DNA from: Ardenticatenales bacterium
GTDB lineage: Bacteria > Chloroflexota > Anaerolineae > Epilineales > Epilineaceae
Direction of reading: 5' to 3'
Length of the DNA stretch: 64,000 nucleotides
Assembly: GCA_020853525.1 (NCBI GenBank)
Contig: JADYYS010000050.1
Span: 18,672 to 82,671, forward strand
The position numbers and the translations under genes are program-made. The number at the start of each line of letters is the position of its first letter. Position 1 is the first letter of the stretch. Of the stretch, positions 1,320 to 33,270 are shown piece after piece. The notes under the pieces were generated by a model. It was not told the DNA's origin and searched no databases. It was given only the letters and a program-made list of their open reading frames with translations.

Positions 1320-1470
1320 TACCCCACCACTGCAGATTCTCCGGGTTCCGTAACTCTGGTAGCCATCACGAGCATGTTCAGTGGTGGGGTACTAGTACAG
1401 CACCACTGTAGATTCTTGGGACTCCCCAATCTGGTCGCCGCCCAAGGCATGTTCAGTGGTGGTGTACTAG
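1320..1470. repeat. Two tandem copies of a ~75-bp palindromic repeat unit (A 1320-1395 diverged, B 1396-1470). Each unit is bounded by 13-bp terminal inverted repeats TAC(a/c)(g/c)CACCACTG ... CAGTGG(t/a)GG(g/t)GTA and ends in CTAG.
   Basis: Read directly from the sequence. Copy B carries a nested inner stem CTTGGG/CCCAAG. A third copy at 46161-46235 differs from B at only 2 of 75 positions. Confidence 0.7.
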
Positions 1471-4400
1471 CGCCGAACCAGCGCCCAGGGGATGAACCGC
1501 ACGCTCAGCTCGCTTGCGCCGATGCCCGGCGATCCGCCGCTCCGCAGAGCGAACCACGACCGCGGGTCGTTGCCCCACCCGGCCGGGAACCGTCGCTCGA
1601 GCGAGGCACCGGTCTGGAACAGCGGAATCTGCCATGGAAGTGCGGAGCGCCACGCCACGCCGTCCACCCGCACCCACGGTCCGAGGAGCGGATCGGCGGT
1701 GCGGCCGGCGCGCGGGCGACCGAGCACCACGGCGCCGCTGTCGGCCGCGACCCGCCCGGCCCACGGGCCGAACAGCGGCACGCCGTCAGGGACGGTCGGG
1801 GCGGCGGCATGGTCGAACGGGTCGACAGCCGCGACGACCGCAAACCCGTTCGCGCTCAACCGTGCGCCCGCGGGAAACACGAACCGGACCTCACCGATCA
1901 ACCCCCATGGCCCGGTGCCGGACGCCGGATCGCCGCCGAGATCGATCGGGCGATCGGTGAGGTTGCGCAGCTCGATCCACGCCGAGCGACCCTTGGGGGG
2001 CGCCGCCAGCATCTCGCTGATGATCACCGGTCCGATCGCGGGCGGCGCGTTCGGCGCGCCCGTACCGGTGCGGAACGCGTCGACATCCGCCGGGTCCGCC
2101 ACGCCGAACGTCGGCCCTGCCAGCGCGGCAACGTCAAGGCCGCCCGGATGGCGATGCGGCCCGAACGACGTGCCGCCGTCCGCCGCGCCGCACGTCAGGC
2201 GCTGCACGAAACCCGTCGGACGACCGGCAGCGTCCGCGGACGAGAGATAGACCGGCTCGCCGTCGCTGTCGAGCCCGAACGCGGTTGCGGCAGGCGCGAG
2301 CGCTTTGAAGTCGCGCTCGTAGATCACGCTGAAGCCGCCGGCCGGGATCGCCAACGGCGCCGGGAGGCGGTACTTCTGGAGCGCGCCGCGGTCATCGGAC
2401 AGGTACCAGCCGCCGATGTCGACGGGTGCGGCCGACGGGTTCGCGAGCTCGACGGCGTCCTCGTATGGCGCGTCACCGGCGCACATCACCTCGGAGAGCG
2501 TGATCCGGCCGTCCCACGGCGGGGCGGGGTCGTCGCGTCCGGGAGAGCCGCCGGAGGCGCGGCTGGCGCGCCACGCCAGCGGGTCGGTCGCGTCGATCGG
2601 GTCGGCGCCCGGGTCGACATCGCGCAGCACGAGGGAGAAGCCGTGGCCGTCCGGGCCGAGCGGCCAGAGATCGCCCTCACGATACGTGACGTCGGCCAGC
2701 ATCTCGCCGCGCGCGTCGAGGAGCGTGATCCGTTCGCCGCCGTCGGCGAGGCGCCCGGTGAACAAGGCGTCGGGCGCGAAGCCGTAGCGCGCCGCGAAGG
2801 CGCTGGAGTTGCGCGCCAGGATGAGCGGCCGGGCGGCGGTCAACCGGGTGGCGGCCGGCAGCGTGGCGGTGATGCCGTGGGTGAACGTCGCACCCGACAG
2901 GTCGACCGGTGTCGTGCCGGCACCGTGCGGCACCGCCAGCTCCACGAACTCCTCGTCGTCGCCCGCTACCGGGTGGTAGTGGATCTCGGAGATCGCGACG
3001 CGCGGCCGGCTGTAGGTCGCATCGGCCATGGCGCTCCACCTGCCGTCCGGCGTCCGCTGGCGGGCGCGCAGGCGCGTGTAGCGGTCACCGATCCGAATCG
3101 CCCGGTCGTAGGGCAAGGCGCTCGGCGACGGATTGGTGGTGTTGGGAGTGCGCGGATCCGTGCCGTCCGTTGTGAACCAGATCGTGCCGTCGGTGGCCTG
3201 GTCGGCACAACCTTGGTCCAGGAGACCAACCGACACCATGCTCACGGACTTGCCGTTGCCGCCGGGCGGGGAGAACCGCGGGCTCGCGACGGCCGGGTAG
3301 AGTCCCTCGGCGCACAGTTGGGCCAACACGTCGGCGGTGCGGCTCGGGTAGAGGTCGCGCAGCAGCCGGTCCCGCTCGGGACGCCAATGGTCGTCGCGGT
3401 TCTGGGGGCGGTTCAGCTTGGCGTTGTCCAGCATCGCGAAGCGGACGAAGCGCCAGTTCTCGCTGCGCGTGCGCTCCTGCCATGGCCCATCCCCCCAGCG
3501 CGCGCTCTCGCCGACGATCGCCCGCTCGATCTCGCCCGCGACGGCGACATACCGCGCGGCAGCGGCGGTCGGCGTCAGGGCGCCGGCCTCGAAGAACTGG
3601 CGGCGGACCCGATCGGCGAACAGCAGGCGGTACTCGGCGCTGCCTTCCGAAAGCCATCGGTGGAGCCCGGCCACACCGTCCAGGTCGATGGTTCGGCCGC
3701 AGCGCTGCGGCTTGCCGATGCAGGTGTCGATATCGAGGCGGTCGTTGCACGGTCCGCAGTAGGTCTCGCCCGGGCTCTGCCGCAGGCCGAGGCTGTGCTC
3801 GATGTCCCAGACGAAGAACTGGAACGGGCCGCCGAGCACGCGGTTGCGGGCGGCGATGAAGTTGTTCGTCGGCCAGTCCCAATTGTCGGCGTAGAGCTCG
3901 AGCAGCGTGTAGTCGGCGTGCTGCGGCAAGTCCATGAGCTGGGCGACCCGGCCGTAGGTGGCCCTGTCGATCTCGACGCCGGCCGGGATGGAGTCGCGGA
4001 CCGCCAGCAGTGCCTTCCAGGCCGCATCGTCGCCGTCCCCGAGATCGTACGCATCGCGATCGCGGAGCGTATCGTGCGCACGGATGACGTCCCAGTTGCC
4101 TTCCTTCCCGCCGAGGTGCGCGGCCATGAAGTCGGCGTCGAGCTCCTCCGTCAGGTTGTAGAGGCCCCAATAGAGCCCGTCGAGGTAGAGATGGACCCAC
4201 GTGCCGCGCGCGCCGGCCCAGCCCATGTCCCGCTGCGTGCGCCGGCCCCACTCGTCGTGGACGTACTGGGCCTTGCCCGGGAAGTAGATGAACGTGTCGG
4301 CCTGGCCGCCGCGCAACCTGAGACTGTCGAAGCGGGCCGGCAGGTCCGGCTGGCCGTCGGGGCCGACGAAGACCGGGTAGTCCAGCTGGCTTGGCCCGTA

Positions 4401-5261
4401 CATGCTGCGAAAACGGACGGAGAACGAGTGCTTGAGCGTCGTATCGGGCTTGCGGCTCCAGCCGCCGGCGATCCGCACGCCCGCGTCCACCTGAAAGCCG
4501 GGGCGTCCGTCGGTGCGCAACATCTCGATGGATGCCGGCCGCTCCCACGCCGTGCCGCGCTCGAGCGGGTGGCTGTAGATGCCGCTGTCGGGATCGAACA
4601 GGTGGTCCGGGTCCGTGACGATCGAAACGCTCGGGATGGCCTTCAGGTCATCGATGATCTCTGCCGCATACCGCGGGTCGTCGACGACGCGGCCATCGAC
4701 GGCGTAATCGGCCGGCACGGGTCGACCTTTCTCGGTGCCCTCGGGATAGGCGCCCCAGGTGGCCGGGAAGCCGGGCGCGCTCACCCCTTGGCGGACGCGG
4801 TCGGCCAGGAAGAGAAAGGTGTGCGTCGCCACGGGCGACGGCGTCCAGCCCGACCGGAATGCCGCGGCGCGCACCGTCGTCGTGCGCTCGATGTGCAACG
4901 GGCCGTCGGCGGTCGCACCATGTTCGAGCGACGGCGGGCTGCCGTCCGTCGTGTAACGGACGATCGCGTCGCGAAGGGGGCTGTGGATGGTGAGATCGAA
5001 CGGTGCGTCGAAGTAACCGCGCTCGACCGAGAAGACGACCGGCGGCACGTCGTGGAGATCGTGGTTGCGCCCGGTGTACGGCAGGTAGATCGCGCCGCTG
5101 CCCGCGGCGGCCGCCGTCGACAGGATCGCCGCGCCGGCGGCAGCTGCAACGAGCAGCAGTGCCACCGGGACGGCGCGGATACGGGCGATCGAACGGCGCA
5201 TGGCGATTGGGCGGCCCTTCCTCCACCCTGGCCGGCGGTTCCCCTGCCCGGCCGAGGGCAT
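1467..5261 (-). CDS. Secreted CotH kinase-family protein with a CHB_HEX_C-like domain and at least two lamin-tail (LTD) domains.
   Basis: N-terminal signal-like segment MRRSIARIRAVPVALLLVAAAAG (an alternative start at 5201 is possible). The chitobiase-C-like motif AIVRYTTDGSPPS is present. The CotH core reads YLDGLYWGLYNLTEELDADFMAAHLG...NWDW. The LTD signatures are ISEIHYHP...EFVEL and ISEMLAAP...AWIELRN. Confidence 0.8.
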   Translation of the reverse strand: MPSAGQGNRRPGWRKGRPIAMRRSIARIRAVPVALLLVAAAAGAAILSTAAAAGSGAIYLPYTGRNHDLHDVPPVVFSVERGYFDAPFDLTIHSPLRDAIVRYTTDGSPPSLEHGATADGPLHIERTTTVRAAAFRSGWTPSPVATHTFLFLADRVRQGVSAPGFPATWGAYPEGTEKGRPVPADYAVDGRVVDDPRYAAEIIDDLKAIPSVSIVTDPDHLFDPDSGIYSHPLERGTAWERPASIEMLRTDGRPGFQVDAGVRIAGGWSRKPDTTLKHSFSVRFRSMYGPSQLDYPVFVGPDGQPDLPARFDSLRLRGGQADTFIYFPGKAQYVHDEWGRRTQRDMGWAGARGTWVHLYLDGLYWGLYNLTEELDADFMAAHLGGKEGNWDVIRAHDTLRDRDAYDLGDGDDAAWKALLAVRDSIPAGVEIDRATYGRVAQLMDLPQHADYTLLELYADNWDWPTNNFIAARNRVLGGPFQFFVWDIEHSLGLRQSPGETYCGPCNDRLDIDTCIGKPQRCGRTIDLDGVAGLHRWLSEGSAEYRLLFADRVRRQFFEAGALTPTAAAARYVAVAGEIERAIVGESARWGDGPWQERTRSENWRFVRFAMLDNAKLNRPQNRDDHWRPERDRLLRDLYPSRTADVLAQLCAEGLYPAVASPRFSPPGGNGKSVSMVSVGLLDQGCADQATDGTIWFTTDGTDPRTPNTTNPSPSALPYDRAIRIGDRYTRLRARQRTPDGRWSAMADATYSRPRVAISEIHYHPVAGDDEEFVELAVPHGAGTTPVDLSGATFTHGITATLPAATRLTAARPLILARNSSAFAARYGFAPDALFTGRLADGGERITLLDARGEMLADVTYREGDLWPLGPDGHGFSLVLRDVDPGADPIDATDPLAWRASRASGGSPGRDDPAPPWDGRITLSEVMCAGDAPYEDAVELANPSAAPVDIGGWYLSDDRGALQKYRLPAPLAIPAGGFSVIYERDFKALAPAATAFGLDSDGEPVYLSSADAAGRPTGFVQRLTCGAADGGTSFGPHRHPGGLDVAALAGPTFGVADPADVDAFRTGTGAPNAPPAIGPVIISEMLAAPPKGRSAWIELRNLTDRPIDLGGDPASGTGPWGLIGEVRFVFPAGARLSANGFAVVAAVDPFDHAAAPTVPDGVPLFGPWAGRVAADSGAVVLGRPRAGRTADPLLGPWVRVDGVAWRSALPWQIPLFQTGASLERRFPAGWGNDPRSWFALRSGGSPGIGASELSVRFIPWALVRR

Positions 5262-5359
5262 TGTACCGTATGGCCGGCAGCACGAATCGCGGTGTTAGGG
5301 CAATGACAGCGCACGGCCGACCGGGGTGTCGGCGGATCCCGGAAAACGGGCGTCTCCCT

Positions 5360-5375
5360 CTCGCGACGTCGCGAG
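5360..5375. promoter_or_regulatory. Perfect 16-bp palindrome CTCGCGACGTCGCGAG, overlapping GTCTAGAC, in the divergent CotH / VTC intergenic region. A second inverted repeat GCGCAT-aac-ATGCGC lies at 5397-5411. Candidate operator sites.
   Basis: Seen in the sequence. The position between two divergently transcribed genes is the only argument for regulatory function. Confidence 0.35.
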
Positions 5376-5506
5376 TCTAGACAGCTGGGGCCCGCGGCGC
5401 ATAACATGCGCTTAACATCCCAATCCTTTCGCGGCCGTGCGTCGTATCTACGATCACACCACCGCTTCGCAGCCGCATCCGGCAGCTGCGCCCAGTTGGT
5501 CAGGTC

Positions 5507-6358
5507 ATGGAAGCCCGCCCGGAAGTCAACCGGTTCGACCGACTAGAGATGAAGTACGTGCTCGACGCGCACCAGCGCCGCGCGATCGAGTCCGTCATCC
5601 GCGCGCGCCTGTCGCCTGACCCGTATGGCGATGCCGAGGGCTGCTACCCGATCATCAGCCTTTATCTGGACGACGCCGAGCTGTCGGCCTTCTGGGACCG
5701 CGAGCGCGGCCTCGCCTCGCGCCGCAAGCTGCGGGCGCGGATCTACGGCGGCGCCGGCACCCGCGCGGCCCCGACGTGCTTCGTCGAGATCAAGCACAAG
5801 TACGGCCGGCGCACCGCCAAGCGCCGGATCGCCTTGCCGGTGGCCGACGCGATGGCGCTCGTCGGCGGTGCGCCGCCGCCGGCCGCGTCGACGCGGATGT
5901 CGACCCTGACGGCACGTGAGACGCTCGTCGTGCTCGAAGCGCAGAAGATGGTCCGCGACCTCCGGCTCGCCCCGCGCTGCATCGTGCGCTACGACCGCCA
6001 CGCCTACCTCGGCGCCGCGGACGCGCCCGACCTGCGGATCACGTTCGACCGCAGCGTGCGCGCCCGCGCCCGCGACCTCGTGCTCCGGACGGACGATGAC
6101 GACTTCGACGTCGATCTCCTGCCGGAGGGCGCCTCGGTCCTCGAGATCAAGGTGGATCACGTCGCACCGTGGTGGCTGGCGTCGGCGGTGGCCGCGCTCG
6201 GCCCAACGGGCCACGCGATCAGCAAGTACGCGCTGGCGGCCGAGAAGCTGCTCGTGCCCACATTCCTCGCCGAATCGCGCGCGGCCGAACGGGCCGCGCC
6301 CGCCCCTTCACGCAACGGACGGACGGCCCATGGACATGCTCAACCAGCTCTTCGGTGA
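5507..6358 (+). CDS. VTC-domain protein (polyphosphate-polymerase-like / CYTH-like domain).
   Basis: Motifs EMKYVL, ISLYLDD, RKLRARIY, FVEIKHKYGRRTAKRRIALP and LEIKV match the VTC family pattern. The 3' end overlaps the start of the next ORF by 29 bp, suggesting translational coupling. Confidence 0.75.
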   Translation: MEARPEVNRFDRLEMKYVLDAHQRRAIESVIRARLSPDPYGDAEGCYPIISLYLDDAELSAFWDRERGLASRRKLRARIYGGAGTRAAPTCFVEIKHKYGRRTAKRRIALPVADAMALVGGAPPPAASTRMSTLTARETLVVLEAQKMVRDLRLAPRCIVRYDRHAYLGAADAPDLRITFDRSVRARARDLVLRTDDDDFDVDLLPEGASVLEIKVDHVAPWWLASAVAALGPTGHAISKYALAAEKLLVPTFLAESRAAERAAPAPSRNGRTAHGHAQPALR

Positions 6359-7049
6359 CTTGCTCCTGCCGCCGGCCGCAGGCGACGCGGTCACGCTCGT
6401 GCAGCTGATGACCGCGCTCGGGCTGTGCTGCGTGCTGATGGTCATCATCGGCTTTGTCTACCAGCGGACGCACCGCGGCACCCTCTACACCCAGGACTTC
6501 GTCCACGCGCTCATCGTCATGGGGGTCGTCGTGACCGCGGTCATCATGGGCATCGGCCAGAGCCCGGTGGCGGCGTTCGGCATCTTCGCCGCGTTCTCGA
6601 TCATCCGCTTCCGGCGCGCGCTGCCCCAAACGCGGGACGTCGCCTTCATCTTCCTGGCGATGGCGATCGGCGTGGCGTGCGGTGCGCACCAGTACGCGCT
6701 GGCCGTTCTGACGACGCTGCTCGTCAGCATCATCGTCGTGGCCCTCGCCACCCTCAACATGTTCGCGCCGGTGCGGCCAAGCCACTTGCTGCGGCTGCGG
6801 GTGCCGCCCGAGGTCGACTTCGACGCAGCGTTCGCCGATGTCTTCCACCGCTTCCTCGACCGCATCCACCTCCAGTCCGTCGAGTCGGTCCAGGCCGGGA
6901 TGCTGACCGAGCTGCGCTACGCCGTCCGCCTGCGCGCCGACGCCCGTCCGCACGACCTCGTCCTCGCGCTGCAGCAAGCGAACGGCAACAACCGCGTCAT
7001 CCTCACGACGGCGGTCTTCGACGGGGACGGCGGCGCGGACGACGACTGA
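6330..7049 (+). CDS. DUF4956-family integral membrane protein. This is the usual genomic partner of bacterial VTC-domain proteins.
   Basis: MDMLNQLFGDLL... followed by hydrophobic helices and the conserved segment FSIIRFRRALPQTRDVAFIFLAMAIGVACG. The call is from pattern recognition, not a search. Confidence 0.7.
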   Translation: MDMLNQLFGDLLLPPAAGDAVTLVQLMTALGLCCVLMVIIGFVYQRTHRGTLYTQDFVHALIVMGVVVTAVIMGIGQSPVAAFGIFAAFSIIRFRRALPQTRDVAFIFLAMAIGVACGAHQYALAVLTTLLVSIIVVALATLNMFAPVRPSHLLRLRVPPEVDFDAAFADVFHRFLDRIHLQSVESVQAGMLTELRYAVRLRADARPHDLVLALQQANGNNRVILTTAVFDGDGGADDD

Positions 7050-10707: not shown

Positions 10708-13700
10708 CTACTCGCGGGATCCGGGGGTTACTGTCAGCGTGACCCGCTGCCCGTCGCGATCCACGATGACCTTGATCGCCTGTCCGATCTTCAGGGCATC
10801 GAGCGACTTCGTGTAATCGTAGATGTTCTCGACCTTCTGGCCGGCCAGCTCGACGATCACGTCGCCGGCCTTGAGGCCGCCCTGCTCCGCCGGGCCGCCC
10901 TCGGCGACGCCTGACAAGAGGACCCCGGCCACGCCGGTGTCGGCGTAGTCCGGGATCGTGCCGAGGTAGACCCGTCGGCCGCCGCCGGACGGGCTCTGCT
11001 CGGGCGCCTTGGCGGCCACGTAGTCCAGCGGCGCGTCGGCGCGGGCGAGGGAGACCGTGATCCCGCTCATCAGGCGGGCGATCTTGGCCAGCGCATCGTA
11101 ATCCAGGCGCTCCGGCGTGTCGCGGGGCGTGTGGTACTCGGAGTGGGCGCCGGTGAAGGCGGCCAGGATCGGGACGCCCTTCAGGTAGAACGAGGTTGCG
11201 TCCGTCGGCAGGAACGTGTCGTCGGACAGCGTGAGCGGCAGTCCGATGGCGACGTTGCGCTGCTCGATCAGGCGGCGCCAGCCCGTGCTCGAGCCGATGC
11301 CCTGCAGGATCACGCCGTCGTGCAGCCGACCGATCATGTCCATGTTCAGATAGGCCGCCGCCGCCGGGTAGATGGACTCCGCCTTGGGATCGTCGCCATA
11401 TGCCTTCACGAAGTGGCTGGAACCGAGGATCCCGAGCTCCTCCCCCGACCACGCCGCGAAGACGATGTCGCGCCGGGCGTCGGCCAGCCGGCCGTCAGCC
11501 GCCTCGTCGGCCAGGAACTGAGCGATCTCGATCAGGCCCGCGACGCCCGAGGCGTTGTCGTCCGCACCGTAGTGGATCTTGCCCTTCTCTTCGGGCTTGG
11601 CCAGCGAGTCGCCGGCACCGCCGCGACCGAGGTGGTCGACGTGCGCGCCGATGATGACGTGCTCCGCACTCGGCGTCCGGCCGACCTGCAGCCGGCCGAC
11701 GACGTTGCGGCCCTTGCCGGTATCGAACGTCAGCGTGAAGTGCGCGCCGATCTGGTGGCCCGGCAGCGCGAAGCCCGCCACCGCCTCGCCGCCGTCGAGC
11801 GCCGCCTGCGCTGAGGCCAGCGTGTGGCCGCTCTTGCCGAACAGCCCCTCCGCCCACGCATCCGTCACGCTGGCCGCCGCGATGCTCGTTCCGGCCACGG
11901 ACGCATCGAAGCGCAGCTCCACAAGCTGCTCCTTGACGTTGCTCGTCGGACCGCTGACGACGAGCAGGCCGACGGCGCCGCGGTCGCGGGCCTCCATCGC
12001 CTTGTAGCGCAGGGACGCGTAGCGGTTCAGATGCTGCCGTCGCTCGGCATCCACATCCTCGGGCAGGTAGCGCAGGACGACGACCCACTTGCCGTTCACG
12101 TCGAGGTCGCCGTAGCTGTCGTAGGCCGCCTGCTCGCCGTCCTTGGGTGCCACGATGCCGTAGCCGGCAAACGCCACGCCCCCGAAGCCGACCGAGCCCG
12201 TCTTCGAGAACGACAGCGGCCGCCAGTCCGTGTCGACGACCCCTTCCTCCTCCGCCCCCCCCTCGGCCTGGCGCACGAGCATGTTGACGCCGTCGATCCG
12301 GACGCCGGACGTGAAGTCGAACGCCTGGAAGTAGCCGTCGTCGCCGGCCGGCGCGAGGCCGAGCGCTTCGAACGCCTCGGCCACGTACTGCGTGGCCCTG
12401 TGCTCGCCGATCGTGCCGGTCTGCCGACCGTCCATCTCGCCGGCGGCGAGGCGCACGACGTGCCGCTTGGCGTCGGCGGCCGTGATGTCGTCCGTCGTCG
12501 CCGCCATGTCCGGCGGCGCGGCCGGTGCGTCGTCGGCGCCCGCACCGGCCGCCTCCGCGCCGGCGGACGACGACGATGCGGCGCGCGGCGGACTCAGCGC
12601 GAGCAGCGCGCGGGCCTTGGCGTCGTTCCAGTCGGCGACGAAAATCTGGTACTCGCCGCCGGCGGTGCCGCGCTTGTTCGACCACGAGATCGTGGCACCG
12701 CCCGGCGAGAAGACCGGCAGGACGTCCGCATCGGGGGTGAACGTCACCCGCACCGGCTCATGCGCCCCGGCGGCATCGACCATGAACAGCTCGAAGTTGT
12801 CGTAGCCCAGTTTGCTCGACGTGAAGACGATGTAGTCGCCGCTCGGGTGGTAGTACGGTGCCCAACTGAGGGCGCCGAACTCCGTGAGCTGCCGTGCGTC
12901 CGTGCCGTCGGCGTTCATCGTCCAGATCTCGGCCATCGTCCCCTCGGCGTTGAACCGCCGCCAGACGATGCGCCGGCCGTCCGGGCTGAAGAACGGGCCG
13001 CCGTCGTAGCCCTTGACGTCGGTCAGGCGCCGGACGTTGCCCCCGTCGGCATCCATCGTGTAGATGTCCATCATGTAGGCGGGGTCCTGGTCGAACAGCT
13101 TCTGGTCCGCCGCATCCATCGGCTCGCTGTACGCCAGGCGGTTCGAGGCGAACACGATCTGCGACCCGTCGGGCGACAGCGCCCCTTCGGCGTCGTAGCC
13201 GCGGGTGCGGGTAAGGTTGCGGTAGTCGTTGCCGCCGATCGTGACGGCGTAGATCTCGTAATCCTCGTCGTAGTCCCAGCTGTAGCGGCGTGTCTCGCCC
13301 GACGCGCGGAAGTCGAGCTCGGCCTGCATGTCCTTGCGGGCGTCCGGGTCCTCGTGGGTCGAGGCGAAGATCGCCTGCTTGCCGTCGGGTGCGAGCCAGC
13401 CGCACGTCGTCTTGCCCCAGCCGGGCGAGACGCGCCGGCTGTCGCCGGTCTCGAGGTCGAGGACATAGATCTGGTAGAACGGGTTGCCGGGCTCGCGCTC
13501 GCTCTGGAAGATCATCCGCTTGCCGTCGGCGTCGTAGTACCCCTCGCCCGACCGCCGACCCTCGAAGACGAGCTGTCGCACGCCCGTGATCAGATCGGCC
13601 TCGACGTGGCTGGTCGTAACGCCGGTGGACGAGACGGCTTGCGTGGCCGTCAGGTCGTCGTGCGCCCCGAGTGCCGTCGACGTCGTCGCCGCGGTGGTGG

Positions 13701-13896
13701 TCACGCCCGAGGCGGCATCGAGCCCGACGGTCGGCGTGCCGACGCCGGCGGGCGGCTCCGCGGTGGGCCGTGCGCCGCCGCAACCGGCCGCGACGAGCAA
13801 CGCAAGGGCGGCGACGCCGCTGCACGCCGCAGTCGCCATGCCGCGGGCGGCAGCAACGCGCGGTGTTGCGATGGGGGTTCGGGTTCGCTCCGACAT
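10708..13896 (-). CDS. Lipoprotein fusing a TolB-like beta-propeller, a PA domain + M28 zinc aminopeptidase, and a PDZ domain.
   Basis: Probable start MSERTR... with lipobox LLVAAGC. PD40-like repeats read YDADGKRMIFQSE, SPDGSQIVFASNR, SPDGRRIVW and SPGGATISW. The M28 motifs are HVDHLG, GADDNASG and SGEELG. The PDZ domain near the C-terminus reads GGLKAGDVIVELAG. Confidence 0.75.
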   Translation of the reverse strand: MSERTRTPIATPRVAAARGMATAACSGVAALALLVAAGCGGARPTAEPPAGVGTPTVGLDAASGVTTTAATTSTALGAHDDLTATQAVSSTGVTTSHVEADLITGVRQLVFEGRRSGEGYYDADGKRMIFQSEREPGNPFYQIYVLDLETGDSRRVSPGWGKTTCGWLAPDGKQAIFASTHEDPDARKDMQAELDFRASGETRRYSWDYDEDYEIYAVTIGGNDYRNLTRTRGYDAEGALSPDGSQIVFASNRLAYSEPMDAADQKLFDQDPAYMMDIYTMDADGGNVRRLTDVKGYDGGPFFSPDGRRIVWRRFNAEGTMAEIWTMNADGTDARQLTEFGALSWAPYYHPSGDYIVFTSSKLGYDNFELFMVDAAGAHEPVRVTFTPDADVLPVFSPGGATISWSNKRGTAGGEYQIFVADWNDAKARALLALSPPRAASSSSAGAEAAGAGADDAPAAPPDMAATTDDITAADAKRHVVRLAAGEMDGRQTGTIGEHRATQYVAEAFEALGLAPAGDDGYFQAFDFTSGVRIDGVNMLVRQAEGGAEEEGVVDTDWRPLSFSKTGSVGFGGVAFAGYGIVAPKDGEQAAYDSYGDLDVNGKWVVVLRYLPEDVDAERRQHLNRYASLRYKAMEARDRGAVGLLVVSGPTSNVKEQLVELRFDASVAGTSIAAASVTDAWAEGLFGKSGHTLASAQAALDGGEAVAGFALPGHQIGAHFTLTFDTGKGRNVVGRLQVGRTPSAEHVIIGAHVDHLGRGGAGDSLAKPEEKGKIHYGADDNASGVAGLIEIAQFLADEAADGRLADARRDIVFAAWSGEELGILGSSHFVKAYGDDPKAESIYPAAAAYLNMDMIGRLHDGVILQGIGSSTGWRRLIEQRNVAIGLPLTLSDDTFLPTDATSFYLKGVPILAAFTGAHSEYHTPRDTPERLDYDALAKIARLMSGITVSLARADAPLDYVAAKAPEQSPSGGGRRVYLGTIPDYADTGVAGVLLSGVAEGGPAEQGGLKAGDVIVELAGQKVENIYDYTKSLDALKIGQAIKVIVDRDGQRVTLTVTPGSRE

Positions 13897-13999
13897 GACG
13901 GGCTCCTTGGGGGCGACACACGGTCCGATGTCGCCTGTGATGCGCCGGGCGCAGGCGCCAACGCGGTGCCGAACCGTGCGCCGGGCACAGCGCCCGCGC

Positions 14000-16864
14000 T
14001 CATCGACCCAGGTCGGCGATCGTTCGATCGAGGGTTTCGTACTCGCTCGCGACGTCCGCCGCGGATAGTGCCTCACCTACCGGCCGCGTGGCCAGCGCGG
14101 CCAACTCGGCCCCGAAGAGCCGGCGGCGTTTCACCGCCTCGACCTCGTGCGCGCGCTGGCCGGGCCGCCCGGTGTCGCCCTCGGCCGGGGCGGGCTGGGT
14201 GGGCTGCCGATCGTGGCTGAGGTCGACCGCCTTCCGCAACGCGCTGCCCGCCGCCTCCGCGTCGCCCACCCGCCAGGCGATGTAGCCGAGCAGGTAGTGG
14301 ACGATGACGGCCTGCTCGTTCAGCCGACCGGCCTGCCGCAGTGCCTGCTCGGCGGCGGCGATGTCCCCGGCCGCCAGCGCCGTCGCACCGAGCTGCATGA
14401 GCGCCCCGCTCTCCTCAGGGTTGATCGCGACGGCGGTCGCGTAGGCCCGTTCGGCGACCGCGAGGTCGAACAGGTCGCCGGCGTCGGGCGATGCGTGGAT
14501 CGCCCCGATCTGCAGGTGGCCCCGCAGGCTCTGCGGGTTGAGGGCCACGAGCGCCTCGAACGGCTCGAGCGCCGCGGCGTAGTCGCCCAGCTCGCTCAGG
14601 CAGCCGCCGAGCCCGAAGAGGGCATCCTCGTGCAGCGGGTCGAGGGCCAGCGCCTCGCGAAACAGCGCGCTGGCCTTGGCGCAATCGTTCTCGCCCTTCA
14701 TCGCAGCCACGGCGGCGCGCTGCAGCTCCCAGAAGCGGACCCGCGCCTGGGGATCGGACGGGCCGAAGTGGACCGGGGTGCCGCCGGCAAGTTGGGGTAC
14801 GGATTCGCCGCTGGCGATGGCGGTGCCGGAATCCACCGACGTCGGGCCACGGTCATATGCAGTGCCGGCCGTGACGCCATCGACGCCGACGACGGCATTG
14901 CCGCCTGCATCCAGCCTGCGAACCTCCGGCCTGCCCTCGGTCAGCTCGATCCGCTGGTCCGCGGCGACCTCGGCCCACGCCTGCACCTCGCCGCCGGGCC
15001 ACCTGACCTCGACCGTGCTCGACCCGCCCGCCGCCCCGAGCCCGAACTGCGCCTCGGGCGCGTGCTGCGAGAGGTAGGACGAGCCGACGCCGACCTCGCG
15101 GACCTGCCGACGATCGCCGGTGGTCACGATGACCTTGGCACCGATGCCGAAGCGGTTGCGCCGGCCGGCGAGTCGAATGCTGAGCCAGTGGTTCCTCGAG
15201 GCGGCAGGATCGGCCGGATCGGTGCGATCGGCTGGTTCGTCGCGACCTTCGCGACCCCCGTCGTTGCGCAGGAGCGTCGGCGGCGCGCCGTGGTTGGCGA
15301 CGACGATGTCGGGGTCGCCGTCGTGGTCGTAGTCGGCCACGGCGGCGCCGCGCGCGACGTGGGTCTCGGCCCAGGCGTCGCCGCTGGCCGCGCCGACGTC
15401 GAAGAAGCCCTCGCCGTCCGGCCCGCGGTTCCAGAACAGCTGGTTGGCCATCGCGACGAGCTGTGTCGGGTCCGCTTCGTCCTGGAACGTGTGGCCGTTG
15501 GCGACGAACAGGTCTAGCCGCCCGTCGCGGTCGTAGTCCAGGAACGCCGTGCCCCAGCCGACGAAATCGAGCGCGATCTGTCCGACGCCGTATTGATCGG
15601 CCATGTCCGTGAAGCGCATGGGCGGCGCGGCCGGCGCGGTCGCGGGTGCGGCGACGTCGGCCGTGCCGGCCGTCGAATCGGCGACCGCGACATCGGCAGG
15701 CGCCGCATCGGCAGCCGGCGGCGCGGGGAGGTTGCCCCGCAGGTTCACGTACAGCGCGTTCTCCTGGGCGATCCAGTGCGTGACGAAGACGTCCTGGTCG
15801 AGGTCGTTGTCCCAGTCGCCGGTCGCCAGGCCCATCGCGCCGCGCGGATCCGACACCCAGGCCTCGTGGCTGATGTCGGCGAACGTGCCGTCACCGTTGT
15901 TGCGGTAGAGCGCGTTGTCCGAGACATCGTTGGCCACGTACAGGTCCAGCCAGCCGTCGTCGTCGAGGTCGCTCCACGTGGCGGACAGGCTCCGGCCGGT
16001 CGGGTTGTCGACGCCGGCCGCCGCCGCGACCTCGGCGAACGTGCCGTCGCCGTTGTTGTGGTAGAGCAGGTTGCGCTCGGGTTCGAACGAGGACGGGTTC
16101 AGCGACACCGGCGTCAAGGCGCCGTACTGGGCCTCTGTTCGCCCGGCGCCGGCCGGGTCCACGACGTACTGCACGTAGCCGCAGACATACGCATCGAGCG
16201 CGCCGTCCCGGTCGTAGTCCGCCCAGCTCACGCCGGTCCAGAAGCCTTCCGGACCGGCGAAGCCGCCGGCCGCGCCGATATCGCGGAACGTCCCGTCCCC
16301 GTCGTTGCGGTACAGCGCGTTCGTACCGAAGCGCGTGACGGACAGGTCGAGGTCGCCGTCGCCGTCGATGTCGGCCCATGCGGCGCCGAGGCCGAGGTCG
16401 GGGGTCGCCAGGCCGGCACGAGCCGTCACGTCGGCGAACGTGCCGTCGCCTTGATTGCGATAAAGATGACCCGTCGCCGTCGACACCGCGCGCTCGGCCA
16501 CCGAGCGGGAGAGCGCGCCGGCGAAGTTCGGCACGTAGAGGTCGTCCCAGCCGTCGCCGTCGAAATCGCCCCACGCGGCGCCGGGGCCCATGTCCTCGGG
16601 CAGCTGGCTGGAGCGCGGCCCGTCGAAGTGGGGGGCGGTGAGGCCGGCCTCGGCCGCGACGTCCGTGAACCGCACGCGCGCCACATCGTCCGGCAGCGTC
16701 CGGCCGAGCGAGTCCGTGATGCCCGCGACGTCCTCGCCGGGTCGATAGGGCTTGTCGTCGCGACGTGCCACCAGGATGCCGGCGACGGCCAGAGCGACGA
16801 ACGTCGCGCTGCCGCCGAACGTGTAGAGGACGCGGCGGGTCCGGCGTGAGATCGGTCGGCGCAT
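14000..16864 (-). CDS. FG-GAP/VCBS-repeat CRTAC1-family protein with an ASPIC/UnbV domain and C-terminal TPR repeats. An N-terminal TM anchor is present.
   Basis: Repeated motifs DFDGDGWDDLYV, DIDGDGDLDL, DYDRDGALD and DYDHDGDPDIVVAN are FG-GAP-like. The UnbV/ASPIC-like segment reads WLSIRLAGRRNRFGIGAKV...VRWPGGEVQAW. TPR-like helices follow. Confidence 0.75.
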   Translation of the reverse strand: MRRPISRRTRRVLYTFGGSATFVALAVAGILVARRDDKPYRPGEDVAGITDSLGRTLPDDVARVRFTDVAAEAGLTAPHFDGPRSSQLPEDMGPGAAWGDFDGDGWDDLYVPNFAGALSRSVAERAVSTATGHLYRNQGDGTFADVTARAGLATPDLGLGAAWADIDGDGDLDLSVTRFGTNALYRNDGDGTFRDIGAAGGFAGPEGFWTGVSWADYDRDGALDAYVCGYVQYVVDPAGAGRTEAQYGALTPVSLNPSSFEPERNLLYHNNGDGTFAEVAAAAGVDNPTGRSLSATWSDLDDDGWLDLYVANDVSDNALYRNNGDGTFADISHEAWVSDPRGAMGLATGDWDNDLDQDVFVTHWIAQENALYVNLRGNLPAPPAADAAPADVAVADSTAGTADVAAPATAPAAPPMRFTDMADQYGVGQIALDFVGWGTAFLDYDRDGRLDLFVANGHTFQDEADPTQLVAMANQLFWNRGPDGEGFFDVGAASGDAWAETHVARGAAVADYDHDGDPDIVVANHGAPPTLLRNDGGREGRDEPADRTDPADPAASRNHWLSIRLAGRRNRFGIGAKVIVTTGDRRQVREVGVGSSYLSQHAPEAQFGLGAAGGSSTVEVRWPGGEVQAWAEVAADQRIELTEGRPEVRRLDAGGNAVVGVDGVTAGTAYDRGPTSVDSGTAIASGESVPQLAGGTPVHFGPSDPQARVRFWELQRAAVAAMKGENDCAKASALFREALALDPLHEDALFGLGGCLSELGDYAAALEPFEALVALNPQSLRGHLQIGAIHASPDAGDLFDLAVAERAYATAVAINPEESGALMQLGATALAAGDIAAAEQALRQAGRLNEQAVIVHYLLGYIAWRVGDAEAAGSALRKAVDLSHDRQPTQPAPAEGDTGRPGQRAHEVEAVKRRRLFGAELAALATRPVGEALSAADVASEYETLDRTIADLGR

Positions 16865-16870
16865 CGTCCG

Positions 16871-18997
16871 CTACCTCGCCGACGTCGTGCGTTCGACGAT
16901 TCTCACGACGGCCTCCGCCGTGTCGATGTCGGTGATCGGCGCCGTGATGCCGGAGTCGACGCCGAACATGTAGTTCAACAGGAACTGGTCGTACTTGCGG
17001 TAGCGCAGCCGGGCCGTGATGTGCAGCGCGCCGGCGGCGGCGGGCGCGGACGGCAGCTCGAAGGCATGATCGCCCGCGTCCGGCGGCTCGGTCAGGACGG
17101 TCGTCGAGGACGGGCAGCCGAAGGTGTACTCGCTCGAGTCCGAGAAGCCGGGGAAGAGCGAGCGCCGGAAGCGAACGCCCGCCATCTCCCAGAGGTTGTG
17201 GCGGTCGATGAGGTTGCCGTACTGGTCGACACCCTCGGCCTTGAAGATGAACGAGCCCTTCTGGATGAAGTTCGCGTCGTCGACGGCGCCGGACTCGAAG
17301 ACCACCTTGCCGGCATCGTCCTTCACGACGACCTCGACCCAGGACTGGATGATGTCGAGCGGGCCGGTCGGGAAGTCGTGCCCGACCTTGCGCGACGTCG
17401 TGACGGCCTTGATCGACAGCGGCTCGCCGGCCACGGCGGTCTGGGGCACCTCGAGGGCCACCGTCACGACCGGACCCGTCTCCCACTTCGCGGCGATCTC
17501 CGGCACCTCGATCTCGCCGCGCAGCCAGTCCGACACGAGGTCGACCTGCTCCTGGCCGCCGGGCAGCTTGAGCATCGTCGGCATCATCTGGTTGGCGCCG
17601 AGGAAGCGGTGGCTGCGGTGCGCGCCGTCGTCGGGCGTTCGGTTGTAGTCCAGCCCATCGCCCGCCGCCGGGTCCGTCGACGCGATGAGCGGCATATGGC
17701 ACTCCCGGCACTCGACGGTCTTCGTCGGATCGCCCGGCTTGTTCCAGTGGCTCTTGCGCCAGTTGTCGTACTGGTTCTGGAGCTGGACCCAGCCGACCTG
17801 GTTCACCTCCTGGTCGATGAACTGCTTGTGGCACGCCGCGCAGTACTCCGGCGTCTTGAACGCGCGCTTGGCCAGCGCGGTGACGTGGGCGCGCGGGTAG
17901 GCGCGGATCAGGAAGTCCCGGGCGAAGCGCGCCGCATCGTTGTCGGGATCGGCCATCTCGAACAGGTAGCGCGGCGGCTGCTCGACGATGTAGTTCGCGT
18001 TGCCCTTGACGTCCGTCTCACGGATCGAGTGGCATGACAGGCACGACACGCCCTCGTCGAAGCCGTGCTTGCCGGTCAGCTGGTCGGTGAAGATGTTCTT
18101 CGTTCCCTCGAACAGCGAGATCGGGTCGTGGCAGCCGGCACAGTAGCGGGTGGACTCCGTCCCGTTCTGGGTGGCCATGACGGCCTGGATCTTCATGAAG
18201 CCCGGGTCCATGGCCGCCCAGCGGTGCGCGCTGACCTCCCACTCCTTCACGATCTGCTCGTGGCAGCCCGACGTCCCGCATGTCTGAGAGCCGGACAGCC
18301 GCCGGGCATCGTATGCTTCGTTCGTGACGGTCCGCGCCAGGCTCGGGGCGAACGGCTTCTCGGGCCCGTACACGTACTGGTAGTCGGACGGAAATGCGTC
18401 TGTCAGCCGCGGCGCCCGATAGGCCAGCCGCACCGCGCCGACGACGCCGAAGCACAGCGCCGCCACCACGGCCCCGCGGACGAGATAGCGCCACTCGGCC
18501 GCGCGGACCGGCTGGCGCGCCACCACCCCGCTCGCGGCGTCATGCCGCACCGCCCGCGCGTCGCGCCACACGATCCACGCGATATGCGGCACGACGAGGG
18601 CGATGACGACGACCGTCGAGACGATGTGCGCCATGTCCCAGGCGTAATCGATCCGACGGCCGAAGAGCGCCTGAACGGTGAGCACGACCCCGGACACCAG
18701 GCACACCGCCGTCGCGATCAGGCCGGCGTAGCCGGTGAGCGTCGTGTGCGACAGGGCGTAGTGACGATACGTCCGCCAGTGCTGGATCTGGTACCACCCG
18801 AAGGGCAGGATGAACAGGACGCCGAACAGCGTGTGCACGGCGACCATCACCTGGTTCGGGACGCTGAACGGCAGGAGGTAGATCGACAGCCCGGTCAGCG
18901 TCTCGAACAGCAGCACCCCGCCGACCGCGATGGCCAGCGGCGAACGCCATGCGGCGACGCGATCGACCCGTGCAGCTCCGGCGACGGCATTCGACAT
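16871..18997 (-). CDS. Membrane-anchored multihaem cytochrome c: an N-terminal 4-TM His-containing (cytochrome-b-like) domain plus five CxxCH motifs.
   Basis: The haem motifs are CGTSGCH, CAGCH, CLSCH, CAACH and CRECH. Probable start MSNAVAG with a strong GGGGGAGG Shine-Dalgarno. TM helices contain conserved His residues. Confidence 0.75.
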   Translation of the reverse strand: MSNAVAGAARVDRVAAWRSPLAIAVGGVLLFETLTGLSIYLLPFSVPNQVMVAVHTLFGVLFILPFGWYQIQHWRTYRHYALSHTTLTGYAGLIATAVCLVSGVVLTVQALFGRRIDYAWDMAHIVSTVVVIALVVPHIAWIVWRDARAVRHDAASGVVARQPVRAAEWRYLVRGAVVAALCFGVVGAVRLAYRAPRLTDAFPSDYQYVYGPEKPFAPSLARTVTNEAYDARRLSGSQTCGTSGCHEQIVKEWEVSAHRWAAMDPGFMKIQAVMATQNGTESTRYCAGCHDPISLFEGTKNIFTDQLTGKHGFDEGVSCLSCHSIRETDVKGNANYIVEQPPRYLFEMADPDNDAARFARDFLIRAYPRAHVTALAKRAFKTPEYCAACHKQFIDQEVNQVGWVQLQNQYDNWRKSHWNKPGDPTKTVECRECHMPLIASTDPAAGDGLDYNRTPDDGAHRSHRFLGANQMMPTMLKLPGGQEQVDLVSDWLRGEIEVPEIAAKWETGPVVTVALEVPQTAVAGEPLSIKAVTTSRKVGHDFPTGPLDIIQSWVEVVVKDDAGKVVFESGAVDDANFIQKGSFIFKAEGVDQYGNLIDRHNLWEMAGVRFRRSLFPGFSDSSEYTFGCPSSTTVLTEPPDAGDHAFELPSAPAAAGALHITARLRYRKYDQFLLNYMFGVDSGITAPITDIDTAEAVVRIVERTTSAR

Positions 18998-19188
18998 GAC
19001 AGCCTCCCCCACCGGCGCGCATCGACTGGGATGCGCGCGATGACCGGTTCGTCCGTTCGTGGGAGGCTGGTCGGCTGACGGCAAGAAAAACAGCAGCCGC
19101 ACCAGGTCCGACGGATCGGACGGTGCTGCTGCTCTTGGTGAAAATCGTAGCCGAGTGAAATTCGGACGTCAAGGGCTGAATTGCGGCC

Positions 19189-26035: not shown

Positions 26036-26177
26036 ATTGCATTCATCGATCAAATGTTCTATTCTCCGATGCGTATAATCCCGATCGATCACCTGCTCGA
26101 GCGCCTGTCGCACGACACCCCGTCCGCCCCCACGCCGCCGACCGCCCGGTCGGCATCGCCCGCGCCCGGAGACCGCC

Positions 26178-28442: not shown

Positions 28443-28445
28443 TCG

Positions 28446-30938
<2,493 letters not shown>

Positions 30939-31848: not shown

Positions 31849-33270
31849 ATGCGAGGATTTGTGCAAACGCCTCCAAATGTCGTGGACCAGATGGTGGCCA
31901 TGCTCTTCCGCGACAGGCGACCTTCTCCCAGTGACCGCCTTCTTGATCCCGGCTGCGGCCCAGGCGCCTTCATCGCTGGCGTGCTGCGCTGGTGCGCGCG
32001 TGAAGGTGTGGAGCCACCGCAGATTGTCGGAATCGAACTCGATCCCGCGCATGTAACGTCGGCACGGGAACGATTCCGGAACGATCCGTGCGTGTGCATT
32101 CGAGGGGCCGACTTCTTGGATTGCCAGAATCAGGATCGATACGACTTCATCATCGGGAATCCGCCCTACGTATCAATCCTGCAGCTCTCCGAACAGGAAC
32201 GGGCTTACTACAAGTCGTCGTTTGTAACCGCAACTGGCAGGTTCGACCTCTACATGCTGTTCTTCGAGCAGGCAATCCGCCTCCTCGATGCAAGAGGCAC
32301 TCTCGTGCTCGTAACACCAGAAAAGTATGCGTATGTTGCCTCTGCGGGCCGTCTCCGCCAGAAGTTGGCCGGGCTCCATGTGACCGACTTCGTGCTCCTC
32401 GATGAGAGCGCGTTTGGCTCTCTTACAACATATCCTGCCATAACGCGCGTTCGCCACTCCCCGCCTGGGCCGTGCAGGATCACAACACGTGGGGGTGCTG
32501 AACGGATCGTAAACCTGCCAAGTGACGGCGCTTCATGGCGCTTCCATCTTCGCGATGGACGACCGTCGTTGCTCACGCCCAGCGGTGAGACGCTGCGGGA
32601 GTTCTGCGATCGCATAAGTTGCGGTATCGCGACAGGTGCGGATCGGGTGTTTGTAATGCCGTCAGATCACGTGCCTGCGCGCCTCGAAAAGTTTGCCTGG
32701 CCGACGATCTCGGGTCGTCAACTCACGATGGCTCCAGAACGCATCGCGACGACCTCGTCGATTCTCGTTCCATACGATAGGCAGGGAGATCTCCTGCCGT
32801 TGGCGGAACTGGAAGAGCTGGGAGAATATCTGCGCACACCCGCGATCGCCCTTCGCCTTCGCGCTCGATCCTGCGTCGCGCGTAAGCCCTGGTATTCCTT
32901 TCACGACTCCGTACCCATGCGTGATCTGGTCCGGCCCAAACTCATCTGCAAGGACATTTGTGCCGAGGCATCTTTCTGGATCGATTCCAAGGGAGAGATC
33001 ATACCCGGGCATTCCGCCTACTACCTCGTGCCGCGTGTCGCCGCGCTGCTCGAGCCCATGGCACACTACCTTAATAGCAGCCTAGTTCGTTCTTGGCTGC
33101 GAGATCACAGCCAGCGTGCGGCAAATGGCTTTCTTCGGAATCAGAGTACAATTCTTAAGCAAGTGCCCATTATATCCGAAGTTGCAAGAGATTGGCGACA
33201 ATTATTAGGTGAACACTCTCTCTCGGCTGATGGTGATAGCTTGGCCGTGCACCTGGAGCCGCTGCCGTGA
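31849..33270 (+). CDS. Gamma-class N6-adenine DNA methyltransferase (TaqI / Eco57I-like). Lies in lower-GC DNA.
   Basis: Motif I LLDPGCGPGAFI. Motif IV FIIGNPPYV. MRGFVQTPPNVVDQMV at the start, with a GGAGGA Shine-Dalgarno. Local GC is roughly 50% against ~70% in the flanks. Confidence 0.8.
   Translation: MRGFVQTPPNVVDQMVAMLFRDRRPSPSDRLLDPGCGPGAFIAGVLRWCAREGVEPPQIVGIELDPAHVTSARERFRNDPCVCIRGADFLDCQNQDRYDFIIGNPPYVSILQLSEQERAYYKSSFVTATGRFDLYMLFFEQAIRLLDARGTLVLVTPEKYAYVASAGRLRQKLAGLHVTDFVLLDESAFGSLTTYPAITRVRHSPPGPCRITTRGGAERIVNLPSDGASWRFHLRDGRPSLLTPSGETLREFCDRISCGIATGADRVFVMPSDHVPARLEKFAWPTISGRQLTMAPERIATTSSILVPYDRQGDLLPLAELEELGEYLRTPAIALRLRARSCVARKPWYSFHDSVPMRDLVRPKLICKDICAEASFWIDSKGEIIPGHSAYYLVPRVAALLEPMAHYLNSSLVRSWLRDHSQRAANGFLRNQSTILKQVPIISEVARDWRQLLGEHSLSADGDSLAVHLEPLP

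Follow-up and report, generated by a model that had tools for sequence, protein, structure and literature searches.

In streptococci, clostridia and bifidobacteria, genes for a CotH-family protein, a polyphosphate polymerase ('PPP') and a DUF4956 protein, often together with a DUF4832 gene, directly adjoin pelDEADAFG and have been described as accessory genes of these Gram-positive pel operons (Whitfield et al., bioRxiv 10.1101/768473). For Streptococcus intermedius, the products of these genes (SIR_1594, SIR_1593 and SIR_1592) were described as a secreted CotH, a VTC-like tunnel protein possessing its catalytic residues and an MgtC-like membrane protein with an ACT domain, and the trio was said not to be found outside pel operons (bioRxiv 10.1101/2024.04.20.589940). 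The NELoc-2 locus of Clostridium perfringens (CP4_0460-0468) encodes a VTC protein, a membrane protein of ~225 aa annotated as 'tubulin/FtsZ, GTPase' and a CotH (PMC2879425); the second of these is a DUF4956-type membrane protein that was mis-annotated. Here, the same trio is described from a 64-kb stretch of DNA (the window) of an Ardenticatenales bacterium (Chloroflexota; assembly GCA_020853525.1, contig JADYYS010000050.1, positions 18,672-82,671 of the forward strand). It represents, in a member of the Chloroflexota, a module that is widespread and conserved and that earlier authors noticed without explaining it. In view of the two preprints and, under other names, the NELoc-2 report, the trio, which was also the subject of an earlier note on this DNA, is not an unrecognised system.

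Comparison of this module among genomes shows that the VTC and DUF4956 genes form a near-obligate core and that CotH is a frequent, optional partner originating from different CotH lineages. Our tentative interpretation of the window trio is that of a membrane-bound polyphosphate (polyP) synthase, possibly also an exporter, serving an extracytoplasmic CotH kinase. The window has a GC content of ~70% and many spurious open reading frames (ORFs), and a filter on GC content at third codon positions (GC3) retained exactly three ORFs at 1.4-7.1 kb. As their GC3 values are 0.86-0.89 in a genome of ~70% GC, these were regarded as real genes. They and their overlap are located as follows.

1467-5261, minus strand: CotH-family protein, 1264 aa (ORF, translation, Pfam match, GC3 of 0.89)
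5507-6358, plus strand: 283-aa protein with VTC (Vtc4-like triphosphate tunnel) as its only domain (Pfam VTC)
6330-7049, plus strand: DUF4956 membrane protein, 239 aa, frame beginning MDMLNQ (Pfam DUF4956)
6330-6358, plus strand: overlap of 29 nt between the VTC 3' end and the DUF4956 start (DUF4956 start at 6330, end of the VTC stop codon at 6358)

The position of the VTC stop codon 29 bp inside the DUF4956 ORF had been pointed out in the earlier note and was confirmed; the same 29-nt overlap occurs in an orthologue with 72% identity (locus L001), and it suggests that the two genes are translationally coupled. The shared control region of 245 bp that had been proposed between the divergent CotH and VTC genes also agrees with the coordinates (5262-5506, with the CotH ATG at 5261), the distance becoming 305 bp if Met21 (5201) is the true start. 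PGAP names for these families are 'CotH kinase family protein', 'polyphosphate polymerase domain-containing protein' and 'DUF4956 domain-containing protein'. Searches of NCBIfam and PADLOC gave zero matches for the three proteins, which have neither a curated equivalog nor a known place in a defence system.

The VTC protein matches Pfam VTC (PF09359) with 114.2 bits (cut-off 23; E 8.8e-33) over profile positions 2-233 of 235. It consists of this single domain and possesses no hydrophobic segment, SPX domain or Vtc1-type membrane domain. A profile of its homologues (n=33) aligned over the full length with the catalytic domain of yeast Vtc4 (PDB accession no. 3g3q, E 1.8e-20); the best PDB matches were Vtc4 chains (E 1e-14 to 1e-20), those to Vtc2/Vtc3 were weaker, and no CYTH hydrolase was among the matches at E<=0.01. 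The triphosphate- and Mn2+-binding residues of Vtc4 are K200, R264, R266, K281, Y359, R361, E426, S457 and K458; eight of these nine have been mutated, with polyP lowered each time, and K458 is the sole residue of the set that differs in the inactive Vtc2/Vtc3, being Ile or Leu there (bioRxiv 10.1101/2023.01.27.525886). The printed VTC alignment was renumbered to native Vtc4 and then checked against the residue list of that cryo-EM paper. All nine equivalents are kept in the window protein (K200/K16, R264/R76, R266/R78, K281/K96, Y359/Y162, R361/R164, E426/E213, S457/S239 and K458/K240), eight of them being invariant in the 33-sequence bacterial alignment and S239 invariant in a narrower 18-sequence alignment. 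As the full catalytic set is kept, including K240 as the equivalent of K458, the protein looks, judged by its sequence, like an active Vtc4 and not a degenerate paralogue, and the Lys/Arg tunnel residues that the earlier note had made a test of its proposal are present in full. The family is very large: a profile search of a library clustered at 50% identity, which also contains eukaryotic VTC proteins, matched 18,086 clusters with an E-value threshold of 1e-3 and 12,002 with one of 1e-10, and the best 150 of the 18,086 were all single-domain proteins of 226-371 aa.

Conservation of the gene order was examined by a scan of one genome per species with the peptide pattern SRRKLR[VLI]R[VLI]Y, taken from the narrower VTC alignment, and scoring was performed with our own hidden Markov models. 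The scan returned 80 loci, which are from Chloroflexota or Verrucomicrobiota only as a result of the pattern used. DUF4956 was located directly downstream of VTC in 77 of the 78 testable loci, often overlapping it. CotH was immediately upstream of VTC at all six Chloroflexota loci (five divergent and one co-directional, with VTC identities of 39-72%) and at 26 of the 52 Verrucomicrobiota loci, co-directional in every case. Targeted look-ups identified the full trio in a related Anaerolineales metagenome-assembled genome (MAG) and in a Chthoniobacteraceae MAG, where the genes form a co-directional operon in the order CotH-VTC-DUF4956; one further relative possesses the VTC-DUF4956 pair alone. 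For other phyla, tblastn of PLSDB yielded four more cases, among them partner CotHs in Actinomycetota and Bacillota.

Nonomuraea (Actinomycetota): VTC-DUF4956-CotH
Planococcus maritimus plasmid (L090, 4470-12824): VTC-DUF4956-CotH-hypothetical protein (689 aa)-HEAT-GT2 (chitin-synthase-like)
Enterococcus faecalis plasmid (L094, 7223-12353): VTC-DUF4956-OmpR-type response regulator-histidine kinase-CotH
Paenibacillus (L093): VTC-DUF4956-Cthe_2159 carbohydrate-binding protein in place of CotH

Co-occurrence of the three families in other genomes, on which the earlier note had staked its proposal, was thus found across at least four phyla. The trio occurs outside pel operons in several phyla (L006-L085, L090 and L092-L094), with no pel gene among the scanned neighbours, contrary to the S. 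intermedius preprint. The CotH proteins that adjoin the pair in other phyla are ~20% identical to the window CotH or undetectable by BLASTP, and such very different subfamilies among the partners argue for a functional link of CotH to the pair and not plain inherited synteny.

Genes associated with surface polymers accompany the module elsewhere, namely pel operons, a chitin-synthase-like GT2 (Planococcus and NELoc-2), GH20 (18 Verrucomicrobiota loci) and Cthe_2159 (Paenibacillus). The gene order of the Planococcus plasmid is that of NELoc-2 CP4_0463-0468. In L026 (6355-8133) and in 17 other Verrucomicrobiota loci, mostly labelled Opitutae, a GH20-like beta-hexosaminidase gene immediately precedes CotH in the same orientation; these 18 loci are closely related and represent few independent observations, and their GH20-CotH-VTC-DUF4956 order suggests a link to N-acetylhexosamine polymers. 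A gene for a phosphate-selective porin (Porin_O_P) directly follows DUF4956 on the same strand in a Rubritalea MAG (L025, 11186-12388), and a histidine kinase gene lies ~0.8 kb upstream of the Paenibacillus pair on the opposite strand. PBP1a, M16 peptidase, SucC and others were considered as conserved partners of the module and rejected as clade-specific synteny.

The DUF4956 protein matches Pfam DUF4956 (PF16316) with 72.3 bits (cut-off 30.6), as do 40 of 40 aligned homologues. In its AlphaFold2 model (pLDDT 83), residues 23-142 form five helices, after which comes a domain of beta-alpha-beta-beta-alpha-beta topology; the modelled C-terminal domain (residues 152-227) looks ACT-like, and the overall layout appears similar to that of MgtC. 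The Pfam MgtC match (PF02308) is below the gathering score (16.5 bits, cut-off 31.4), with such sub-threshold matches occurring in 25 of the 40 homologues (best E 0.004), and hhalign analysis against Escherichia coli YhiD gave a collinear and weak alignment (E 0.0045, probability 7.7%). No solved membrane protein convincingly matched the helical part. DUF4956 is more conserved than VTC (~50% versus 38% identity between Chloroflexota and Verrucomicrobiota), and in its alignment the motif FAAFSIIRFRR is invariant and the loop RTHRG has a near-invariant G50; the positive-inside rule would place both at the cytoplasmic face. MgtC is described, in a paper citing the original work, as a regulator of the F1Fo ATPase and of PhoR. 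The earlier note had pointed to the membrane channel of eukaryotic VTC; DUF4956 looks more similar to an MgtC-type membrane domain plus ACT than to a Vtc1-type channel subunit. On plasmids of Bacteroidota (Hymenobacter and Chondrinema; L089, 7938-10021, and L091, 7929-9619), TolC- or HlyD-family efflux genes directly follow DUF4956 with no detectable VTC, an arrangement that hints at an export-related role.

The following parts were identified in the CotH-family protein.

5097-5192, minus strand: N-terminal hydrophobic segment, ~residues 24-55, after an Arg-rich stretch (the sole stretch of the protein with hydropathy >1.6)
4815-5021, minus strand: CHB_HEX_C_1/Fn3_assoc (chitobiase/hexosaminidase C-terminal-like) module, residues 81-149 (Pfam 54-56 bits, cut-offs 22-23)
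3303-4787, minus strand: CotH atypical-kinase core, ~residues 159-653
3804-3878, minus strand: catalytic loop D462-x4-N467 and metal-binding D486 (WDxE), invariant in 27 homologues (5jd9 alignment)
3012-3194, minus strand: borderline further module resembling CHB_HEX_C/Fn3_assoc, the second of its kind, at residues 690-750 (Pfam 24.5 and 21.9 bits, cut-offs 23 and 22)
2682-3008, minus strand: lamin-tail domain (LTD) 1, residues 752-860 (Pfam LTD 36.4 bits, cut-off 34.3)
2235-2510, minus strand: LTD 2, residues 918-1009 (Pfam LTD 45.6 bits)
1827-2042, minus strand: partial LTD-like stretch 3, residues 1074-1145 (28.5 bits, below the threshold of 34.3; profile positions 3-69 of 109)

The match to Pfam CotH (PF08757) is above the gathering score (48.5 bits, cut-off 23.8). 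The calls of CotH, chitobiase-C-like, VTC and DUF4956 domains in the earlier note were accordingly borne out by Pfam; its count of two lamin-tail domains is right for those above the cut-off and leaves out the third, sub-threshold stretch, and the second, borderline CHB_HEX_C-like module had also not been recorded. A phmmer search of the PDB with the full-length protein gave zero matches, and a profile was needed to reach CotH of Bacillus cereus (5jd9): that of 27 homologues aligned with it at E 3.6e-5, the next matches being other atypical kinases (PI4K-II, CtkA, HipA and Fam20). The protein is assigned to the CotH atypical-kinase fold. Residues D462, N467 and D486 correspond in this alignment to the motifs NFDGFVHN...WDYD of the B. 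cereus protein, and the spacing of D462 and D486 is 24 residues compared with 23 between the catalytic D228 and the metal-binding D251 of Bacillus subtilis CotH. The D228Q and D251A variants of the latter are inactive as kinases (PMC7821199). The N-terminal segment is predicted to be a Sec signal peptide or a signal anchor, and the protein is thus probably exported. Such segments were identified in 64 of 105 CotH homologues versus 0 of 113 VTC homologues, which fits an extracytoplasmic CotH kinase and a cytoplasmic VTC enzyme. The N-terminal export segment, the Chloroflexota context and the lack of coat genes among the neighbours of the module speak against localisation in a spore coat and against CotB/CotG as substrates, and the source organism is unlikely to be a spore-former. 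Within the CotH coding region, ARAGORN reported a 'tRNA-???' with a four-base undetermined anticodon (2508-2609), which is almost certainly a false positive.

The spacer between CotH and VTC contains several candidate regulatory elements.

5262-5506, no strand: divergent CotH-VTC control region, 245 bp (sequence)
5378-5407, plus strand: sole sigma-70-like promoter match, TAGACA-18-TAACAT, directed toward VTC (1 found, 0.1 expected in the region)
5397-5418, plus strand: tandem 11-nt direct repeat, GCGCATAACAT followed by GCGCTTAACAT, overlapping the promoter match

The repeat pattern WTHACA-N5-WTHACA occurs once in the 64 kb, where 0.02 occurrences are expected. The blocks GTCTAGACA and CATAACAT are kept in the orthologous spacers of L006 and L007, with three near-copies of GTCTAGACA in L007 (8160-8231). 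A 23-nt repeat block, GCGCATAACATGCGCTTAACATC, is likewise kept in L006 (9880-9927) and, with one mismatch, in L007, the spacers being otherwise diverged. A perfect 16-bp palindrome (CTCGCGAC followed by GTCGCGAG) is located at 5360-5375. The tandem repeat may be the promoter itself or belong to it, or it may serve as the box of a response regulator of the OmpR/PhoB family; its resemblance to the PhoP box of B. subtilis is only a lead.

From these data we infer polyP synthesis, a VTC-DUF4956 complex, export of polyP and a chemical link to CotH. The VTC protein would be a soluble, cytoplasmic, Vtc4-like triphosphate-tunnel enzyme, most likely polymerising polyP from ATP, which DUF4956 most likely tethers and regulates at the cytoplasmic membrane; if the analogy to eukaryotic VTC extends this far, DUF4956 may also translocate the nascent polymer. 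The CotH-type kinase, exported or membrane-anchored and carrying glycan-binding-like and lamin-tail modules, would act on a cell-surface or matrix substrate, and exported polyP could be its phosphoryl donor, co-substrate or scaffold in an ATP-free compartment. That the adjacency of CotH and the pair recurs suggests an extracytoplasmic kinase dependent on the product of the pair. A bolder version, which we think quite unlikely, would have the VTC protein and an oligomer of DUF4956 acting as a minimal bacterial VTC machine that makes polyP from cytoplasmic ATP and threads it outward, with CotH using polyP as donor or attaching or organising it on a surface polymer or protein; polyP could then, for example, cross-link cationic exopolysaccharides such as Pel.

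Several observations weigh against a polyP synthase serving CotH. We know of no protein-kinase-fold enzyme with polyP as its donor. The survey is biased, with one peptide pattern, two phyla and many closely related MAGs. Within it, 26 of the 52 Verrucomicrobiota loci have no adjacent CotH, and the neighbours at these are unrelated genes (PBP1a, M16 peptidase and SucC). The three closer non-Chloroflexota relatives of the window CotH (34-40% identity) all lack VTC and DUF4956 nearby, and DUF4956 without VTC is also found in Bacteroidota. CotH and the pair are each therefore able to work without adjacency of the other, CotH being an optional partner, and the coupling proposed in the earlier note, by supply of polyP or nucleotides to an extracytoplasmic kinase, is hypothetical. 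DUF4956 is unlike the transmembrane channel domain of Vtc1/Vtc4, and its nearest likeness, MgtC/YhiD, is to regulators and not to channels. No VTC-DUF4956 fusion was identified among the best 150 of the 18,086 VTC clusters (Rosetta-stone test). In S. intermedius, mutants lacking any one of the three homologues still produced Pel and still aggregated, and only the DUF4956-type mutant aggregated slightly less (bioRxiv 10.1101/2024.04.20.589940). In the literature on bacterial VTC-domain proteins or DUF4956 only genome and transcriptome listings were found, with no biochemical or genetic assignment, and in this respect the statement of the earlier note that the system has no assigned function stands.

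It is also conceivable, although in our judgement somewhat unlikely, that polyP remains in the cytoplasm, as is assumed by the S. intermedius authors, who hold this same view (bioRxiv 10.1101/2024.04.20.589940). DUF4956 would then be an MgtC-like regulator or sensor that adjusts synthesis to phosphate or energy status through a metabolite bound by its ACT domain, and CotH, chemically unconnected to polyP, would merely be co-regulated in a programme for the envelope, biofilm or phosphate stress. The absence of CotH from half of the Verrucomicrobiota loci, the occurrence of DUF4956 without VTC, the response-regulator-like direct repeat in the shared control region and the two-component system inserted in the Enterococcus cluster are all in its favour, and it fits the fold data at least as well as the synthase serving CotH does. 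However, it leaves unexplained why very different, apparently exported CotH subfamilies were recruited in at least four phyla, and it offers no reason for a soluble polymerase to have a dedicated, seemingly translationally coupled membrane partner in 77 of 78 loci. A role in the envelope or matrix would agree with the surface-polysaccharide contexts whether polyP is exported or cytoplasmic only.

The two remaining explanations question the polymerase activity and the CotH link, respectively. The TTM/CYTH superfamily consists mostly of hydrolytic enzymes, and the VTC protein could be a tri-/polyphosphatase, nucleotide cyclase or NTPase that forms a signalling or phosphate-scavenging unit with DUF4956. 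A near-invariant Glu (E14) in the R-x-E-x-K motif of the first strand, where Vtc4 has a Thr (T198), agrees with this and counts against a polymerase, as the motif recalls the ExExK typical of hydrolytic TTM enzymes; SPX and Vtc1-type transmembrane domains are also absent. We nevertheless regard such an activity as distinctly improbable, given the complete Vtc4 substrate and metal set, including the K458 equivalent lost in the non-catalytic Vtc2/Vtc3, and the PDB matches, which were best to Vtc4 and included no CYTH hydrolase. That CotH and the pair are functionally unlinked in this genome, and neighbours by inherited synteny only, would accord with their opposite strands, with the lack of VTC neighbours among the closest non-Chloroflexota CotH relatives and with flanking genes of a housekeeping type (asparagine synthase and SpoU methylase). 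This is very unlikely, however, as the adjacency persists in 6/6 Chloroflexota loci despite VTC identities of 39-72%, in divergent and co-directional arrangements, and recurs in other phyla with unrelated CotH subfamilies.

Nearby genes in the window encode an asparagine synthase, a SpoU methylase, an FAD oxidase, an M28 peptidase and others; there are no spore-coat genes among the neighbours of the module, and no gene for a Pel-type or other glycosyltransferase was identified among the main ORFs scanned up to ~43 kb of the window. Rfam gave no match within the window. Downstream of the module, the minus strand at 10708-19168 encodes large exported proteins: an FG-GAP/ASPIC/TPR protein, one resembling multihaem cytochromes, and an M28 peptidase that also carries PD40 and PDZ domains. 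Their genes do not accompany the module elsewhere. A GyrB/GyrA-type topoisomerase pair (26079-30938) is closely followed by an island of low GC content (31849-34049; 0.55 versus ~0.70) containing an Eco57I/TaqI-like N6-adenine DNA methylase gene (31849-33270) followed by a 260-aa ORF without a Pfam match. This island looks like a horizontally acquired restriction-modification unit.

The module is of interest for what it could reveal about the function of a very large enzyme family, and not for the discovery of the cluster. New here are its occurrence outside pel operons and outside Gram-positive bacteria, the invariant VTC-DUF4956 core and the repeated recruitment of CotH partners of unrelated subfamilies. 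To our knowledge, PPK1 and PPK2 are the only established bacterial polyP synthases, and a VTC-DUF4956 machine, if it exists, would represent a third bacterial route to polyP besides these two. Should the pair make, and especially export, polyP, bacterial phosphate and biofilm-matrix biology would have to be revised and the many exported CotH kinases would gain a rationale; use of that polymer by CotH would explain how secreted bacterial kinases are energised without ATP. For experimenters, VTC-DUF4956 is a clean two-gene system to express and assay.

Compared with the eukaryotic VTC complex (Vtc4/Vtc3 or Vtc2/Vtc1), a vacuolar polyphosphate polymerase-translocase, the window module has a homologous catalytic domain with all nine residues kept, and in both an enzyme is paired with a membrane component. 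The window VTC protein differs in having neither SPX nor a fused three-helix Vtc1-type transmembrane domain, the bacterial membrane partner being a separate protein of another family (DUF4956, with five predicted helices and an ACT-like domain), and the coupling of synthesis to translocation that was shown for the eukaryotic complex is only inferred for the bacterial pair. The layout predicted for DUF4956, with the membrane helices first and the ACT-like domain at the C terminus, appears similar to that of MgtC/YhiD/SapB, and the sequences show weak collinear similarity; DUF4956 falls below the Pfam MgtC cut-off with a low hhalign probability, and partnering with a TTM enzyme is not known for MgtC. 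The window CotH is only 13% identical to the Bacillus CotH spore-coat Ser kinase (5jd9/5jda). It is also predicted to be exported, while the Bacillus protein is assembled in the mother cell, and it possesses additional carbohydrate-binding-like and lamin-tail modules.

Closer counterparts are the bacterial clusters that contain all three families. NELoc-2 and the Planococcus plasmid have in common the start of their order (VTC, the ~225-aa membrane protein and CotH), which is followed there by genes for a ~690-aa hypothetical protein, a HEAT-repeat protein and a chitin-synthase-like GT2, none of which is beside the window module. Relative to the pel accessory genes, the window trio belongs to a different phylum (Chloroflexota), is not contiguous with pelDEADAFG and is divergent where the pel arrangement is co-directional, and its CotH, at 1264 aa, is much longer and has CHB_HEX_C and LTD modules where the pel-associated CotH has FN3. 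In both, however, the same three families adjoin, the CotH is predicted to be secreted, the catalytic residues of VTC are present, and the membrane protein of the pel clusters is likewise described as helices plus ACT and as MgtC-like.

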